Part shown: positions 9,334-16,107 of the stretch, piece by piece | Numbering within the stretch: the first letter of the stretch is position 1 | How the letters are laid out: every line of letters starts with the position of its first letter | Origin: a phage | Sequence record: PZ347661.1 | Strand: one strand, 5' to 3' | DNA: 64,000 nucleotides | Program-made: the position numbers and the translations under genes | The notes under the pieces: model-generated | Databases searched by the model: none | The model's input: only the letters and a program-made list of their open reading frames with translations | Told to the model about the DNA's origin: nothing

Positions 9334-9648
9334 ATGACCCAGAAATTACGTGTATGGCACATCCCCCAAGTGCCAATGAAGGCATTTCATGTAGAGACTG
9401 ATAGTCTTCAGGAAGCTGTTAAGATTAAGAATGCGCTAGCAGACTACGATCTATTCCAATATGAGAACAACGTCAAAGGCGATTATGCTAATGCTAACGG
9501 TATTGAGATGTGGGATGAGTCCCTCACTGACCAAGACCTTATTGATATGGAATTGGATGACCGTTGGGTAGATTGGTATATTGAAACTGAAGAATATTTC
9601 TTTGATGACCCAGAAGAGTATCTGAATTATCTAGCCAAGCAAGTATGA
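9334..9648 (+). CDS. hypothetical acidic protein (104 aa)
   Basis: ORF with GGAGAG RBS. Confidence 0.55.
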   Translation: MTQKLRVWHIPQVPMKAFHVETDSLQEAVKIKNALADYDLFQYENNVKGDYANANGIEMWDESLTDQDLIDMELDDRWVDWYIETEEYFFDDPEEYLNYLAKQV

Positions 9649-9694: not shown

Positions 9695-9725
9695 GACCTC
9701 CCTATTGAAGGGAGGTCTTTTTTTG
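9695..9725 (+). terminator. intrinsic terminator
   Basis: GACCTCCC-loop-GGGAGGTC followed by TTTTTTT. Confidence 0.7.
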
Positions 9726-10583: not shown

Positions 10584-10913
10584 ATGAAAACTTTACTTAA
10601 AGGTATTGCAGTAGCCGCACTGATAGCTTTGGCCCCAAGTGCACAAGCAATTGAACCAGAACCAATTCTGGAAGGTGCTCAGGCTTATCTGGATGACACC
10701 CGTGATGCGTTCGGGCAAGGATTCTTCATGGGCAGTATGATCTCTTATATCGAGAGTACAAATAATTGCGTTCCTGAAGGTGTTAAGTATTCAGTCATTC
10801 TGCCTAAGATTGTCAAAGTAGTTATTTATGACTCTGCAATTCTCAAATTGAAGAATACATCTCAAATTGTTGTGTACTCAGTACACAAGGCATATCCCTG
10901 CACTAAATCTTAA
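10584..10913 (+). CDS. secreted/periplasmic protein with signal peptide (109 aa)
   Basis: N-terminus MKTLLKGIAVAALIALAPSAQA is a typical Sec signal with AQA cleavage site. Confidence 0.55.
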   Translation: MKTLLKGIAVAALIALAPSAQAIEPEPILEGAQAYLDDTRDAFGQGFFMGSMISYIESTNNCVPEGVKYSVILPKIVKVVIYDSAILKLKNTSQIVVYSVHKAYPCTKS

Positions 10914-10947: not shown

Positions 10948-12000
10948 ATGGCAAGCATTGACTCCTTGACTGTATGTAATTCACGTCAAGCTCGTAACTT
11001 TATTATCCGTGCCCTGAAAGCAGGTAACGTACCATTCCTGACTTCATCACCGGGCATGGGTAAATCTGCAATCATTCGTTCTATTGCAGAAGAATTTGGT
11101 ATGAAGCTGATAGACCATCGTCTGTCTACTTCTGCTCCAGAAGACCTTTCTGGCTTACCATTCCGCAATGGTGACCGTGCAGAGTTTATCCCATTCGCTG
11201 ACTTATTTCCTATTGAAGGGGATGCTGTACCGAAGGGTTATAATGGCTGGCTCCTGTTCCTCGATGAGTTCAACTCAGCTAAGAAAGAAGTAGTAGCTGC
11301 TGCATACAAACTGATTCTCGACCGTATGACTGGTCAGAAAAAACTACATCCTAATGTGATGATTGTCTGTGCAGGTAACAAAGCTACTGACCGTGCCATT
11401 GTTAACCCACTGGGTACTGCAATGCAGTCCCGTGTGGTTCACTTCGAAATGGAACTTAACTTCGACATCTTTGTTGAAGACGTAATGATTCCTCAGCAAT
11501 GGGATGAACGTCTGGTTGCATTCTTACATGCTAACCCCGGTTACCTGCATGACTTCGACCCGGCACATAAGAACAAAACATTCTGTTGTCCTCGTACCTG
11601 GGACTTTGTTAACAAAGACCTCAAGAACTTGCCAGAAGGTGCTCTGCCTGATGAAGATTCTATCTACTATGCAGGTCACGTTACTGCTGGTAAGGCTACA
11701 GAATTTGTTCAGTTTACCCAGGTGTACAATCGTATCATTACGATTGAGAAGGTAGTCAAAGACCCACTGGGCTGTGCACTACCGGATGATAACAACCTGT
11801 GTTGGGCTACTGTTAACCATCTGGCTAACAAAACTACTGAAGAGAACTTTGTTGATGTTCTTCGGTATATTGAACGCTTTAAAACGTTCACCCATAGGAT
11901 TCTATACTTCCGTACAGTAGGCAATGCATTACCAGATCTTCAGGCTACCCCTGAATGGCGTAAGGCTGCTGCTAATATCTCTCGCTACATTCACGGATAA
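10948..12000 (+). CDS. AAA+ ATPase, MoxR-like (350 aa)
   Basis: Walker A SPGMGKS and Walker B LLFLDEFN. Confidence 0.75.
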   Translation: MASIDSLTVCNSRQARNFIIRALKAGNVPFLTSSPGMGKSAIIRSIAEEFGMKLIDHRLSTSAPEDLSGLPFRNGDRAEFIPFADLFPIEGDAVPKGYNGWLLFLDEFNSAKKEVVAAAYKLILDRMTGQKKLHPNVMIVCAGNKATDRAIVNPLGTAMQSRVVHFEMELNFDIFVEDVMIPQQWDERLVAFLHANPGYLHDFDPAHKNKTFCCPRTWDFVNKDLKNLPEGALPDEDSIYYAGHVTAGKATEFVQFTQVYNRIITIEKVVKDPLGCALPDDNNLCWATVNHLANKTTEENFVDVLRYIERFKTFTHRILYFRTVGNALPDLQATPEWRKAAANISRYIHG

Positions 12001-12007
12001 TCACAAC

Positions 12008-13183
12008 ATGAACCAATTTCCTCAGCACACACTTAGTGATGAACAACTCATGCGTGAGTATGACCGTATTCAGGCCCAAGCCTTCCTGGGCAAGTCTGCT
12101 GCGTTCTTTGGTTCATTACTGTGTAGTCTTAAATTCTCATGGAAACGTGAGGATTGTCCCACTGCATGTACTGATGGGATAGAACTTCATTTCAACCCAG
12201 ACTTCTTTATCTGGATGTGTCCAGATGTAAGAGAAACAGTATTAATGCACGAACTATGGCATGTAGCATATCTACATGACATCCGTCGTGGAAGCCGTGA
12301 CCCGGAAGTCTGGAACCAGGCATGTGACCACTTCATTAACCTTCAGTTAGAAGAGGATGGTTACAAGTTCACTGGTATCGACAAGGGCATTTGCAAAGAC
12401 CCTAAATATAAAGATTGGGTCGAAGAAGACATCTACGATGACCTGATGAAGAACCCTCAGAAAAGGCAGAAGCCGTCAGGGGGTGCTGGAGCAGGTCTTG
12501 CTGGCGACATGAAATCCCCTACTTCGGGGCAGTCCCAGGGTGCTGTCGTCAACAACGTAGTACGTGCAATGCAGAGCCAGAAGATGGCTGGTGGACAGAT
12601 GCCCGGTAAGGGTGCTGGTCGTATGGAAGAGGTTATTACCCAATTCCTTAAACCAGTAGTTCCCTGGCAGGAAGTTCTGATAAACTTCTTTACCGACATT
12701 GATGACACCCATTATACGTGGGCCAGACCTAATCGTCGTTACACTGACATCTATCTACCTTCCATGGAAGATGATGAAGGACGCTTACGACACTTAGCCT
12801 ACTTTGAGGATGTATCTGGTTCCATTAGTAGTGATGACTCTCTGCGTTTTAACTCAGAGGTTGCTTACGTTAAGAGCCAATTCAATCCTAAGAAGATGTC
12901 CTTAATTACCTTCGACGATGTTATCCAGGAAGAAATAGACATCACTGAAGAAGATACTTTCGAAGAGATTAAGATTACTGGTCGTGGTGGTACAAACCTG
13001 GAACCAGTACGCGAATGGATTATTAAGAATAAGCCAACCGCTGCAATCATATTCTCCGATATGTATGTTCGCCCAATGGAAGAATTACCATTTGATATCC
13101 CCATCATCTGGTGTGTTCTGAATAATCCCAATGCTACCGTACCTTTTGGGGAGGTAGTTCATATCCCTAAAGGAATGAAATAA
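12008..13183 (+). CDS. zincin-like (HExxH) plus VWA-domain protein (392 aa)
   Basis: MHELWHVAYLH motif, Gly/Gln-rich linker, C-terminal DxSGS MIDAS-like motif (FEDVSGSISS); start trimmed to ATG at 12008. Confidence 0.6.
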   Translation: MNQFPQHTLSDEQLMREYDRIQAQAFLGKSAAFFGSLLCSLKFSWKREDCPTACTDGIELHFNPDFFIWMCPDVRETVLMHELWHVAYLHDIRRGSRDPEVWNQACDHFINLQLEEDGYKFTGIDKGICKDPKYKDWVEEDIYDDLMKNPQKRQKPSGGAGAGLAGDMKSPTSGQSQGAVVNNVVRAMQSQKMAGGQMPGKGAGRMEEVITQFLKPVVPWQEVLINFFTDIDDTHYTWARPNRRYTDIYLPSMEDDEGRLRHLAYFEDVSGSISSDDSLRFNSEVAYVKSQFNPKKMSLITFDDVIQEEIDITEEDTFEEIKITGRGGTNLEPVREWIIKNKPTAAIIFSDMYVRPMEELPFDIPIIWCVLNNPNATVPFGEVVHIPKGMK

Positions 13184-13689
13184 TGGTTGTTAACGGTAAT
13201 TCTCTATATCGTTCCTCTCAGTTGCTGGATGTTCCAGACCATAAGGTATCTGAACACGGTGTAAGCTATGGATTAGGTGAAGCTGGTTATGATATTCGTA
13301 TCAAACAAGATATTACCTTCTATCGCTTATTTGGGTTGATTCCAATGGTGAAGGTCGTTGATGGAAATCAAGTATCACGCCATCTCGGTAAGTTCACATT
13401 GGCTTCAGCAATTGAGAAGTTCAACATGTCCCCATCCTGTGTAGCTATCGTTCACGATAAGTCTACCTGGGCAAGACGTGCATTATCTGTGTTCAATACC
13501 GTAATAGAACCAGGATGGAAAGGGTATCTTACCCTCGAACTGGTCTATCATGGTCGCAAGAAATTGCATATCCCAGCTGGTTCTGGGATAGCTCAAGTAT
13601 TATTTCATCTGGTTCAGGAACCTGCTAATTACAATGGCAAGTATATGAACCAGGAAAACAAACCAGTAGCTGCAAGAAGCAGCAAATAA
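13183..13689 (+). CDS. dCTP deaminase / dUTPase-fold protein (168 aa)
   Basis: IEPGWKGYLTLEL motif typical of the Dcd/dUTPase superfamily. Confidence 0.6.
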   Translation: MVVNGNSLYRSSQLLDVPDHKVSEHGVSYGLGEAGYDIRIKQDITFYRLFGLIPMVKVVDGNQVSRHLGKFTLASAIEKFNMSPSCVAIVHDKSTWARRALSVFNTVIEPGWKGYLTLELVYHGRKKLHIPAGSGIAQVLFHLVQEPANYNGKYMNQENKPVAARSSK

Positions 13690-13698
13690 GGAAACAAC

Positions 13699-13908
13699 AT
13701 GTCAGTATTTCAAGTAACTCATGCAACCTCAGATGTACGTTTAACCATTAATGCTGCAAATGTAATTGCAGTAGAACAGATTCCACAGTCTGACCATGCA
13801 CGCGTCATATTTGTAGATAATAACTATATAGAAACCAAAGAAACCTATCGTTCAGTACGCAATTACCTGAAGAAAGCTCTTGCTCCTGCAAGCAAAGACG
13901 CTGAGTAA
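13699..13908 (+). CDS. hypothetical protein (69 aa)
   Basis: ORF with AGGAAAC RBS. Confidence 0.5.
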   Translation: MSVFQVTHATSDVRLTINAANVIAVEQIPQSDHARVIFVDNNYIETKETYRSVRNYLKKALAPASKDAE

Positions 13909-13920
13909 GTAGCTGCCTAA

Positions 13921-13946
13921 ATAGCCCAACATAGTTGGGCTATTTG
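13921..13946 (+). terminator. terminator-like hairpin
   Basis: TAGCCCAA-CATAG-TTGGGCTA then TTTG; short T tract. Confidence 0.45.
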
Positions 13947-13981
13947 TGAAGAAACTAACTCAACCTCACATAGGAACCATC

Positions 13982-14224
13982 ATGGAATCTTTAGCAGCAA
14001 TCCTTGTTTTCTTATTCATATTGGCTGTATACCTTATCCCTACTATCATTGCTTTTTCACGAGGCCATGTCTCTAAGTGGGGCATTGGTGTACTCAATAT
14101 CGTATTAGGCTGGTCACTGGTATTCTGGGTAGTAGCACTGATTTGGTCACTGTCCAACAAAGGGCAGAACCAGGTTACAAATGTAACCGTTGTTCAAACC
14201 AATGGTGGCAGTAAAACAGAGTAA
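13982..14224 (+). CDS. membrane protein with two TM helices (80 aa)
   Basis: ATG with AGGA RBS; hydrophobic segments. Confidence 0.5.
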   Translation: MESLAAILVFLFILAVYLIPTIIAFSRGHVSKWGIGVLNIVLGWSLVFWVVALIWSLSNKGQNQVTNVTVVQTNGGSKTE

Positions 14225-14296
14225 CTAATCGTAATAGTCTCATGAGGCTATTACTGGAAGTTACTTCCAGCTCATTGCTTATCCATCTCCTAATCC

Positions 14297-14323
14297 AAGC
14301 CCACCTAACCCGTGGGCTTTTTT
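14297..14323 (+). terminator. intrinsic terminator
   Basis: AAGCCCAC-loop-GTGGGCTT followed by TTTTT. Confidence 0.65.
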
Positions 14324-14339
14324 AATTACAGGTACTCTT

Positions 14340-14720
14340 ATGTCAAACAGACGAAATGGTAAGTCTATCCTGCAAGGACTGGACTTCAGTAAGCTGGAAC
14401 AAACTGCAATGCTTGCTTTAGGTAAAACTATCCATGACCAAGTGGAGAGTAAAATTGAATTAGATCTTTATGCAACAATGCAGACTCTTATTCAGAAAAA
14501 ATGGATTACTAGCAGACTTTTTCCTTCATACATTCCCCCAGAACCTCATCTGAAATCTAAGGTAGACCGAATCATAGATAAGTTCTGGCTTAACCCATAC
14601 GGGGATGATATGCAACTTTATCTGACTCAAATACAAAAGAATCCTCATACTAAGGATGTGTTCAAGGGTAAAAGTACTACCCATCACTACCCCTGGTATA
14701 GAAGAGGTAGTAAATACTAA
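14340..14720 (+). CDS. hypothetical protein (126 aa)
   Basis: ORF. Confidence 0.5.
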   Translation: MSNRRNGKSILQGLDFSKLEQTAMLALGKTIHDQVESKIELDLYATMQTLIQKKWITSRLFPSYIPPEPHLKSKVDRIIDKFWLNPYGDDMQLYLTQIQKNPHTKDVFKGKSTTHHYPWYRRGSKY

Positions 14721-15163
14721 TGCGTATCCCATTCCTAAGAAAAAGGGAACGAAATCCTGTTCTTTATAATAAAGGCATAGAGGATGAGTATGCACTCAAC
14801 AGTAAAGCTCGTTCCTACACAACAAAATTATTTATGGGGACTAAAAACCCTGATAGATTACTGGACTTTGTTTTTGAACAAGTCTTTATCATATACAGCT
14901 TAGCTATGACTGCTGGTTCACAAGAAGTAAGTGATAAGGCAAGAGATGCTCTCTGTATGCTCCGTAAAGAGTATGAAGCCCTCATGTATGAAGACTTGTA
15001 CTCCTTTAAAAAAGAAACCGCTGTAGCGTGTTCTGTGGCTCTTACTGAAGGTGTAGCAGTATTACAAGAACTACCTCGTAGTGAGTTTAAGCTGGTATAT
15101 GTTCAGGTTAAGAGAATCACAGAGACTAGAAGTGGTATCACCAACTATCTAAGGTCATTCTAA
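14720..15163 (+). CDS. hypothetical protein (147 aa)
   Basis: ORF, coupled to neighbours. Confidence 0.5.
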   Translation: MRIPFLRKRERNPVLYNKGIEDEYALNSKARSYTTKLFMGTKNPDRLLDFVFEQVFIIYSLAMTAGSQEVSDKARDALCMLRKEYEALMYEDLYSFKKETAVACSVALTEGVAVLQELPRSEFKLVYVQVKRITETRSGITNYLRSF

Positions 15164-16107
15164 TGATTAAGGCATCAGTAATTGCAGATTCTGTTCATCC
15201 AGAAACAGGAACTCGTATAACAACCTTTGAATTGGTTTATCCCCGATTCATTCACAGTGAGTTTATGACTCACCGTGTATTCAACCGTAATGCTTCGAGC
15301 AGTCGTGCTATTCCTACCTCTAAGCTTATCGAACAGGTTCGTAATGAACCAGTGATGCCAAGTCACTGGGGCAAGAACCAGAAAGGTATGCAAGCAGAGG
15401 AAGAACTCACTCCTATGGAGATTGGGGATGCCAAGTTTATCTGGGATAACGCTGCATCTGCTGCTGCTGTGTACGCTGAACAACTACGCCGTGGTCAGGT
15501 ACATAAGCAGATTGTTAACCGTATTCTGGAACCCTTCACGCATATTCGTGTAGTGGTAACTTCAACTAGCTGGGCTAATTTCTATGGACTGCGTGACCAC
15601 AAAGATGCACAACCAGAGATTCGTGAACTGGCTCAAGCAATGCGTAAGGCACATGAAGAAAGCACACCAAGAGCACTATCATATGGGCAATGGCATATGC
15701 CGTACATTACTCATATTGATCGTGTTGGGGCTTACAATTTCTGCAAACGCAATCGAGTTACACGCGATGAACCAAGTGATGCAGAAGTACATGGACTACT
15801 TCTTAAAGTAAGTGCTGCACGCTGTGCTCGTGCTTCCTATAACAACTTTGAAGGGCGACCTTCTACTATCGAAGAAGACCTTGGCTTATTTGCTAAGTTA
15901 GTGGAAAACCAACCTATTCATGCTTCTCCAACGGAACATCAAGCTACGCCTATGAACCTTAGTGAGAAGTACGTGAATAACATGAACCCAGTTACATGGG
16001 AACAAGGTGTTACATCCATGGATAAAGAAGGGAATCTGTACTCAGGTAACCTGCTTCACTTTATCCAATTCCGTAAATTAATTCCTGGTGAGACTATTAC
16101 TGAATGA
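15163..16107 (+). CDS. thyX: flavin-dependent thymidylate synthase ThyX-like (314 aa)
   Basis: EFMTHRVFNRNASSSRAIP resembles the ThyX RHR-x7-S signature (THR variant); inference from motif only. Confidence 0.55.
   Translation: MIKASVIADSVHPETGTRITTFELVYPRFIHSEFMTHRVFNRNASSSRAIPTSKLIEQVRNEPVMPSHWGKNQKGMQAEEELTPMEIGDAKFIWDNAASAAAVYAEQLRRGQVHKQIVNRILEPFTHIRVVVTSTSWANFYGLRDHKDAQPEIRELAQAMRKAHEESTPRALSYGQWHMPYITHIDRVGAYNFCKRNRVTRDEPSDAEVHGLLLKVSAARCARASYNNFEGRPSTIEEDLGLFAKLVENQPIHASPTEHQATPMNLSEKYVNNMNPVTWEQGVTSMDKEGNLYSGNLLHFIQFRKLIPGETITE

Follow-up and report, generated by a model that had tools for sequence, protein, structure and literature searches.

A predicted MoxR-type AAA+ ATPase and zincin-VWA protein pair in an N4-like coliphage, orthologous to N4 gp24/gp25 and carried also by chromosomal islands

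A stretch of 64,000 nucleotides from phage sequence record PZ347661.1 (hereafter the window) carries at positions 10948-13183, on the plus strand, a two-gene module comprising an AAA+ ATPase gene (open reading frame (ORF) A) and a gene for a fusion of a zincin-like domain with a VWA domain (ORF B). The window belongs to a G7C-like (Gamaleyavirus) N4-like coliphage, and the DNA of this region is 93-95% identical to that of phages St11Ph5, PE007 and IME11. The two proteins are orthologues of gp24 and gp25 of phage N4. We consider it somewhat probable that they form a two-component MoxR-type machine. In the middle (replication) phase this machine would use ATP within the infected cell to cleave or remodel a selected substrate, most probably a protein of the host or of a competitor, or else a phage protein of the replication phase, and not a part of the virion. 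An initial annotation of this DNA, made from the letters and their ORFs, had delimited the same two frames, which the ORF list bears out, and had proposed a protease-coupled remodeller of unknown target; this was the right level of claim, and the interpretation is supported by the analyses below. The identity of the pair as N4 gp24/gp25, its status as core genes and its published pairing in phages are points beyond that annotation. The features of the module are listed here with window coordinates.

10948..12000, plus strand: ORF A, AAA+ ATPase, orthologue of N4 gp24, 350 aa (Pfam AAA, PHROG 1297 and N4 matches)
11047..11067, plus strand: Walker A (P-loop) SPGMGKS, residues 34-40, from the translation; G38, K39 and S40 invariant
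11251..11268, plus strand: Walker B LLFLDE, residues 102-107, from the translation; D106 and E107 invariant
11377..11433, plus strand: from candidate sensor-1 Asn144 (AGN) to candidate arginine finger Arg162 (QSR), both invariant
11584..11601, plus strand: CCPRTW motif of the lid region, with Arg216 as candidate sensor-2 (conservation)
12001..12007, plus strand: spacer TCACAAC, 7 nt, between the ORF A stop (TAA, 11998-12000) and the ORF B ATG (sequence)
12008..13183, plus strand: ORF B, zincin-like/VWA fusion, orthologue of N4 gp25, 391 aa (Pfam, PHROG 1314 and N4 matches)
12056..12766, plus strand: DUF2201_N (PF13203, 'putative metallopeptidase'), residues 17-253; 193.8 bits (cut-off 23.2), 5.7e-57
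12248..12262, plus strand: HELWH (H81-E82-x-x-H85), residues 81-85, in helix 72-87 (conservation, helix assignment)
12275-12277, plus strand: His90, candidate third metal ligand, conserved in 136/145 (Asp in 7)
12326-12328, plus strand: Asp107, in helix 99-116, candidate third metal ligand, conserved in 144/145
12455..12547, plus strand: variable Gly/Gln/Pro-rich loop PQKRQKPSGGAGAGLAGDMKSPTSGQSQGAV, residues 150-180, gappy in the alignment of 50 homologues
12719..12739, plus strand: W-A-RPNRR motif (W-x-RPNRR), residues 238-244, at the junction to the VWA domain (conservation)
12794..13165, plus strand: VWA domain (DUF2201, PF09967, 'VWA-like'), residues 263-386; 120.1 bits (cut-off 26.4), 8.1e-35
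12809..12823, plus strand: MIDAS motif DVSGS (D268, S270, S272; a metal ion-dependent adhesion site), residues 268-272 (conservation)
12992-12994 and 13058-13060, plus strand: T329 and D351, completing the MIDAS (conservation)
13183..13689, plus strand: dCTP deaminase gene (Pfam DCD; sequence)

In Pfam, ORF A scored above threshold for the generic AAA family (27 bits, cut-off 21.2), and PHROG 1297 ('ATPase') matched the protein from end to end (6e-133). Conservation was scored by aligning ORF A with 47 homologues (51-87% identity), and G38, K39, S40, D106, E107, N144, R162 and R216 were all invariant, and the Walker A and Walker B motifs reported in the initial annotation are both present and conserved. 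Within the CCPRTW segment and next to it, F212, R216 and T217 were invariant and C213, P215 and W218 were at least 90% conserved. The sensor-1, arginine-finger and sensor-2 residues were assigned as candidates from their position in the AAA+ core. Distant homologues of ORF A scored above the cut-off of AAA_5 (PF07728), namely those of cyanophage S-TIM61 (24.9 bits), locus L020 (23.1 bits) and locus L086 (27.4 bits), and came near the thresholds of AAA_3 (PF07726) and bpMoxR, while the sole solved relatives in a sequence search of the PDB were the AAA modules of midasin/Rea1 (best 8.6e-5). With the midasin ring as the best solved relative and homologues above the AAA_5 cut-off, the term 'MoxR-like' used in the initial annotation is reasonable on the basis of the family, not of the window sequence by itself, and ORF A is read as a predicted active AAA+ ATPase of the MoxR/midasin group. 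Neither ORF A nor ORF B had a match in NCBIfam. A PADLOC search gave a weak match for ORF A (E 0.006) and none for ORF B; since it yielded nothing meaningful, the pair is not a catalogued defence system.

ORF B is fully covered by two Pfam families in order, DUF2201_N and then DUF2201, and both the metallopeptidase and the VWA assignments proposed earlier are therefore backed by profiles (5.7e-57 and 8.1e-35), whereas the SprT-like domain that had been suggested for a Pfam check was not found, as ORF B gave no SprT or WLM match. The HELWH motif is real: it lies on a helix, it is conserved, and about 0.015 HExxH motifs would be expected by chance from the composition of ORF B (about 0.09 for DxSxS). 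In a near-family alignment of 50 homologues, H81, E82, H85, D107, D268, S270, G271, S272, T329 and D351 were invariant; in a deeper set of 145 representatives at 33-51% identity, H81 was kept in 141, E82 in 136 and H85 in 141. HELWH is predicted to supply two metal ligands and the catalytic Glu.

The structure of ORF B was taken from an AlphaFold2 model with a mean predicted local distance difference test (pLDDT) score of 80.6. Foldseek searches with the N-terminal domain placed four selecase chains at the top and ArdC and Spartan at ranks 5-6, with a best E of 0.25, which is not significant. The closest solved folds for residues 1-239 were nonetheless zincin peptidases, aligned over about 90-115 residues around the HExxH helix. 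Searches of ORF B against the PDB by sequence, single and profile, returned nothing beyond weak matches to integrin MIDAS strands. We assign the domain as zincin-like because the family profile is very strong, the HExxH is conserved on a helix and the fold signal, itself weak, is consistent with it; peptidase activity is predicted on this basis.

The Gly/Gln-rich stretch that the initial annotation had taken for a linker does exist, and it is partly of low confidence in the model (pLDDT below 50 at residues 158-164). Rather than linking two domains, it forms a variable loop within the N-terminal family domain, because DUF2201_N spans residues 17-253 and three conserved helices come after the loop. 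The true junction to the VWA domain comprises residues 235-262 and contains the W-x-RPNRR motif, of which W238, R243 and R244 were invariant in the 50 homologues, and R243 and R244 were kept in 129 and 136 of the 145 representatives. This motif and the Y..YLPS that follows it are among the best-conserved parts of the family, yet they lie in the sole long low-confidence segment of the model (231-257), and W-x-RPNRR could be a docking, autoinhibitory or processing site.

The C-terminal DxSGS motif noted earlier proved to be part of a complete MIDAS, the DVSGS of residues 268-272 being joined by T329 and D351. Across the 145 representatives, D268, S270, S272 and D351 were kept without exception and T329 in 144. 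Fold matches of this domain included the NorD VWA domain, BchD and the midasin MIDAS domain. The sequence evidence shows a VWA domain with a complete MIDAS site, for which carboxylate binding is predicted.

Comparison with N4 revealed 61.3% identity between ORF A and gp24 over residues 1-350 and 61.1% between ORF B and gp25 over residues 8-390, and the gene order gp24-gp25-dCTP deaminase is the same in N4 (EF056009) and the window. The N4 genes are separated by 167 nt as against 7 nt in the window, and nothing essential differs. In N4-like phages, gp24 ('unknown') and gp25 ('vWFA domain') are among the 14 core genes, and both are described as middle transcripts in N4 (Chan et al., PMC4193335); genome papers since 2009 have reported the AAA and vWFA/DUF2201_N domains with function 'unknown' (PMC2784036, PMC5735904).

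A total of 696 phage records matched ORF B and 814 matched ORF A in tblastn searches, the carriers including phages of the N4-like group from many hosts, jumbo phages (Asteriusvirus and PA5oct), a cyanomyophage, rV5-like phages and a Rhizobium phage of 61 kb. A phmmer search of ORF B against 1.84 billion cluster representatives identified 13,316 clusters at E ≤ 1e-3, of which 7,915 also passed E ≤ 1e-10. Of the 81 loci examined, 70 have an ATPase homologue upstream on the same strand, and the two genes are direct or near neighbours in cyanophage S-TIM61, Asteriusvirus A4, PA5oct and Rhizobium phage TM27B. In rV5-like phages the MoxR ATPase lies about 4 kb from the zincin-VWA gene, on the opposite strand. 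In one of these, AlexBoehm, the zincin-VWA gene (486 aa) is preceded not by the ATPase but by a 325-aa 'anti-sigma factor' gene (L084 2923-3900), whose PHROG matches are Srd, 'decoy of sigma70' and endonuclease.

The module is also present outside phages. A scan of one genome per prokaryotic species detected numerous copies on the chromosomes of Acidobacteria, Planctomycetes, Desulfobacterota, Pseudovibrio and others. Around three acidobacterial copies, ±10 kb was inspected, and no virion genes were found within that range. These islands carry tyrosine integrases, a Prok_Ub/Prok-E2/ThiF/PRTRC_E cassette and a RES toxin domain, with Abi-type and STAND defence genes near the module; PRTRC has been catalogued as a system of mobile elements (PMC3318190). 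There the module runs from the ATPase through a further gene of 312-314 aa (gene X) to the DUF2201 protein, and RNase H and Sipho_Gp157 come next. At other loci the neighbours include a DUF4942-methyltransferase, a Mom-like gene, a helicase and a Ham1-kinase. Across very different carriers, the module travels with genes of DNA processing and establishment and not with morphogenesis genes. The island copies without virion genes weaken a role in virion assembly only and favour an intracellular one.

In 50 of 80 genome loci, gene X separates the ATPase gene from the zincin-VWA gene, and start and stop codons overlap; examples are found at L086 9060-10004, L087 9066-10004 and L020 3033-3977. Gene X is matched by neither Pfam nor PHROG, the window contains no counterpart of it, and the possibility that it is a paralogue of the ATPase was rejected, since direct comparison showed no similarity. 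A Granulicella chromosomal island holds two copies of the module about 4 kb apart, one in the two-gene and one in the three-gene form (L086 1475-3756 and 8053-11209), beside ThiF/PRTRC_E and a Mom-like gene.

In the window, the gap between ORF A and ORF B is one nucleotide shorter than the eight initially annotated, and the stop of ORF B overlaps the start of the dCTP deaminase gene (TAATG at 13181-13185). Taken mechanically, the longest ORF for B would start at 11924, within ORF A, and one deposited relative is annotated in this way; the start was set at 12008 because the N-termini of the 50 ORF B homologues align there. A scan of the window sequence found no terminator-like site between ORF A and ORF B. 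Terminator-like hairpins on the plus strand at 9695-9717 and 14297-14319, with stems of 9 and 8 bp, each followed by a T-run, bracket a block of about 4.6 kb comprising six small ORFs, the ATPase gene, the zincin-VWA gene, the dCTP deaminase gene and two further small ORFs. Given the tight packing and overlap of the genes and the bracketing hairpins, ORF A, ORF B and the dCTP deaminase gene are probably on one shared transcript, and the dCTP deaminase would belong to the transcription unit by position, which does not imply membership of the machine. Only weak sigma-70-like promoter matches were found before or between the genes, and these were rarer than in shuffled sequence. The middle genes of N4 are transcribed by a phage RNA polymerase, and this result is therefore expected.

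Several smaller features of this neighbourhood were also recorded. Two small exclusion-type genes (9334-9648 and 13946-14224) flank the module inside or just ahead of its transcription unit; one is a P22 gp17-like 'superinfection exclusion' gene (Pfam GP17, 1e-46) and the other encodes a membrane protein with an Imm_superinfect domain (3e-16). Immediately 5' of the ATPase gene, the ORF at 10584-10913 (109 aa) encodes a protein with a hydrophobic, signal-peptide-like N-terminus, which is labelled 'tai4 protein' in phage 24-32N, belongs to PHROG 11132 of no known function and has no Pfam match. Pyrimidine genes recur just 3' of the module in unrelated phages: dCTP deaminase in the window and N4, with ThyX further on (13183-16107 in the window); ThyX in S-TIM61 (L082 6633-7304); and thymidylate synthase in Asteriusvirus A4 (L083 7256-8185). 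This recurrence may be a coincidence of early-region layout or a functional link.

How such a machine might work is suggested by CbbQ/CbbO, Rea1 and RavA/ViaA, from which the following steps are transferred. ORF A would form a hexamer carrying the VWA protein ORF B as an adaptor; the MIDAS metal of ORF B would hold a specific target protein by a carboxylate; the hydrolysis of ATP by ORF A would supply the force that pulls on or remodels the target; and the zincin domain of ORF B, with its conserved catalytic Glu, would cut it. Rea1/midasin has the same mode of action, with the MIDAS domain tethered. In the CbbQ6O1 complex, the MIDAS of CbbO binds a surface carboxylate of rubisco, one VWA protein is present per AAA+ hexamer, the substrate is remodelled by ATP hydrolysis, and MIDAS mutants of CbbO keep ATPase activity while losing substrate sensing and activase function (PMC4660213). 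An intracellular target is favoured by the description of the N4 genes as middle genes, by the unit that the pair shares with dCTP deaminase, by its occurrence on mobile islands and by the acidic character of ORF B, which has an isoelectric point (pI) of 4.9 (domains 4.5-5.6).

The following points weigh against this reading, and gene position, the N4 decoration gene and the PA5oct observation keep the preference for an intracellular role in the replication phase at moderate strength. Gene position is weak evidence, and the middle region of N4 also holds a virion decoration gene (32 kDa VP). The window ATPase itself scored 18.8 bits against AAA_5, below the gathering score of 22. The third metal ligand is either of two conserved candidates, H90 or D107. 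The interaction of A with B, its stoichiometry and any substrate are all inferred from the analogous systems, and literature searches on N4 gp24/gp25 and the DUF2201 family found no experiment on any member. Finally, the ATPase homologue of PA5oct (L091 1008-2123, PQE65_gp149) bears the note 'ESI-MS/MS', i.e. it was detected in a purified phage preparation.

The last of these observations bears on the first alternative, which is that the pair is a virion-assembly chaperone with a processing protease that folds, assembles and trims structural proteins. This role was proposed in print for the pair of group 2.2 jumbo phages, which has the same architecture, by analogy with the p618/p892 pair of Acidianus two-tailed virus (ATV) (PMC7824862), and p618 does interact with the VWA protein p892 (cited in PMC4660213). 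The Asteriusvirus A4 pair is flanked by 'structural protein' genes, and in S-TIM61 the pair follows Hsp20 and precedes a virion structural gene. Against the PA5oct note, however, stand the 7 'virion-unrelated enzymes' in the mass-spectrometry list of that phage and the zincin-VWA partner, encoded some 3 kb further downstream, beyond a homing endonuclease gene, which carries no such note; 'gp149' in the PA5oct paper is the portal, in a numbering other than that of PQE65_gp149, and the text of the paper could not confirm what the note means. The virion proteomics paper on phAPEC6 makes no mention of these proteins. The ATV pair has no peptidase domain, the N4 genes are middle genes, and the window unit includes dCTP deaminase. 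The proposal suits the island copies poorly, as it does not account for a module on non-viral integrase/PRTRC islands, one of them with two copies. We regard virion assembly as rather unlikely.

A second alternative is an enzyme activase or metallochaperone, which would supply a phage or host enzyme, for example one of nucleotide metabolism, with a cofactor or free it from an inhibitor, the HExxH binding a metal without cutting. The best-studied bacterial MoxR/VWA pairs (CbbQ/CbbO, NorQ/NorD, CoxD/CoxE and CobS/CobT) act in this way (PMC7159879, PMC4660213), and the NorD and BchD fold matches of the VWA domain, together with a weak match of a distant ATPase homologue to the PHROG 'porphyrin biosynthesis' (CobS-like), point in the same direction, as do the dCTP deaminase directly downstream in the window and N4 and the ThyX or thymidylate synthase no more than about 2 kb away in the window, S-TIM61 and A4. 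Hydrolysis is nevertheless suggested by the catalytic Glu of HExxH, kept in 136 of 145 representatives, the nearest N-terminal folds are peptidases, and the island copies are without such an adjoining enzyme. An activase therefore appears improbable.

Thirdly, a SprT/Wss1-type DNA-protein crosslink protease with an AAA+ partner (cf. Wss1-Cdc48) could clear trapped proteins from replicating phage DNA, and RNase H, Gp157 and DNA polymerase I are indeed among the replication and recombination neighbours of the module. We consider this very unlikely, since ORF B is acidic throughout and devoid of a basic DNA-binding region, SprT and WLM are absent from its Pfam matches, and its fold score against this class is no better than against other zincins.

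The label 'HNH endonuclease', given to ORF B by PHROG 1314 (match 4.6e-144) and copied into many phage records in RefSeq and pharokka-style annotations, is ruled out by profiles, folds and motifs to the point of near certainty, as no HNH family is detected in Pfam at E up to 0.01, DUF2201_N and DUF2201 fill the whole length, and the predicted folds are zincin and VWA. The label has spread to records such as NC_070873.1, NC_070874.1 and PV252060.1. True homing endonuclease genes lie beside or between the pair in the relatives pSb-1, PW8 and PA5oct, and such inserted genes may be the source of the label.

The pair was also compared with the vWA-MoxR ternary conflict systems (Kaur et al. 2020, PMC7159879) and rejected as a member, because the defining third component (VMAP, FtsH or beta-propeller) is absent: the window has no third gene, gene X is without an identifying profile, and bpMoxR appeared below threshold and in one island ATPase only.

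As a tentative and less probable extension of the reading as an intracellular MoxR-type protease or remodeller, the module may be a self-contained, ATP-powered 'targeted protease' that phages and integrative elements bring into cells; it would then represent a new class of takeover or counter-defence machine, common to lytic phages and PRTRC-type islands. One specific host protein (a defence, replication-control or stress factor) would then be destroyed or remodelled during establishment, and gene X might be the specificity or regulatory subunit of the three-gene variant. Finding the target would fill one of the last gaps in the N4 infection cycle, as no more than 14 genes, gp24 and gp25 among them, are common to all N4-like phages, and with relatives of ORF B in more than 13,000 clusters, the answer could reveal a general intracellular tool of phages and mobile islands. 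The analysis also corrects a widespread misannotation.

The architecture itself is already catalogued, by Pfam, as N4 gp24/gp25 and in a 2021 description from jumbo phages, so that the initial annotation was a correct rediscovery; what is new here is the island context, the three-gene variant, the conserved RPNRR junction and the note on misannotation, which are modest additions. Besides N4 gp24/gp25, a close published system with the same architecture is the 'chaperone-cochaperone' pair, MoxR AAA+ and peptidase-vWA, which Iyer et al. (2021, PMC7824862) described from group 2.2 jumbo phages. Its homologues in Asteriusvirus A4 and PA5oct match both window proteins, although they are only 25-30% identical to them and longer (441 and 467 aa in A4). 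The ATV p618/p892 pair is likewise a viral interacting MoxR-VWA pair (cited in PMC4660213, PMC7824862), but it belongs to an archaeal virus and has been assigned a role in extracellular tail growth. For residues 1-239 of ORF B, the nearest solved folds are the minigluzincins (selecase, projannalysin and proabylysin) and SprT/Wss1/ArdC. CbbQ/CbbO, NorQ/NorD, RavA/ViaA and Rea1 similarly combine a MoxR/AAA_5 AAA+ protein with a C-terminal VWA partner bearing a perfect MIDAS; CbbQ/CbbO-type partners have no peptidase domain and act on cellular enzymes or pre-ribosomes, whereas the partner in the window is zincin-like and borne by phages and islands.

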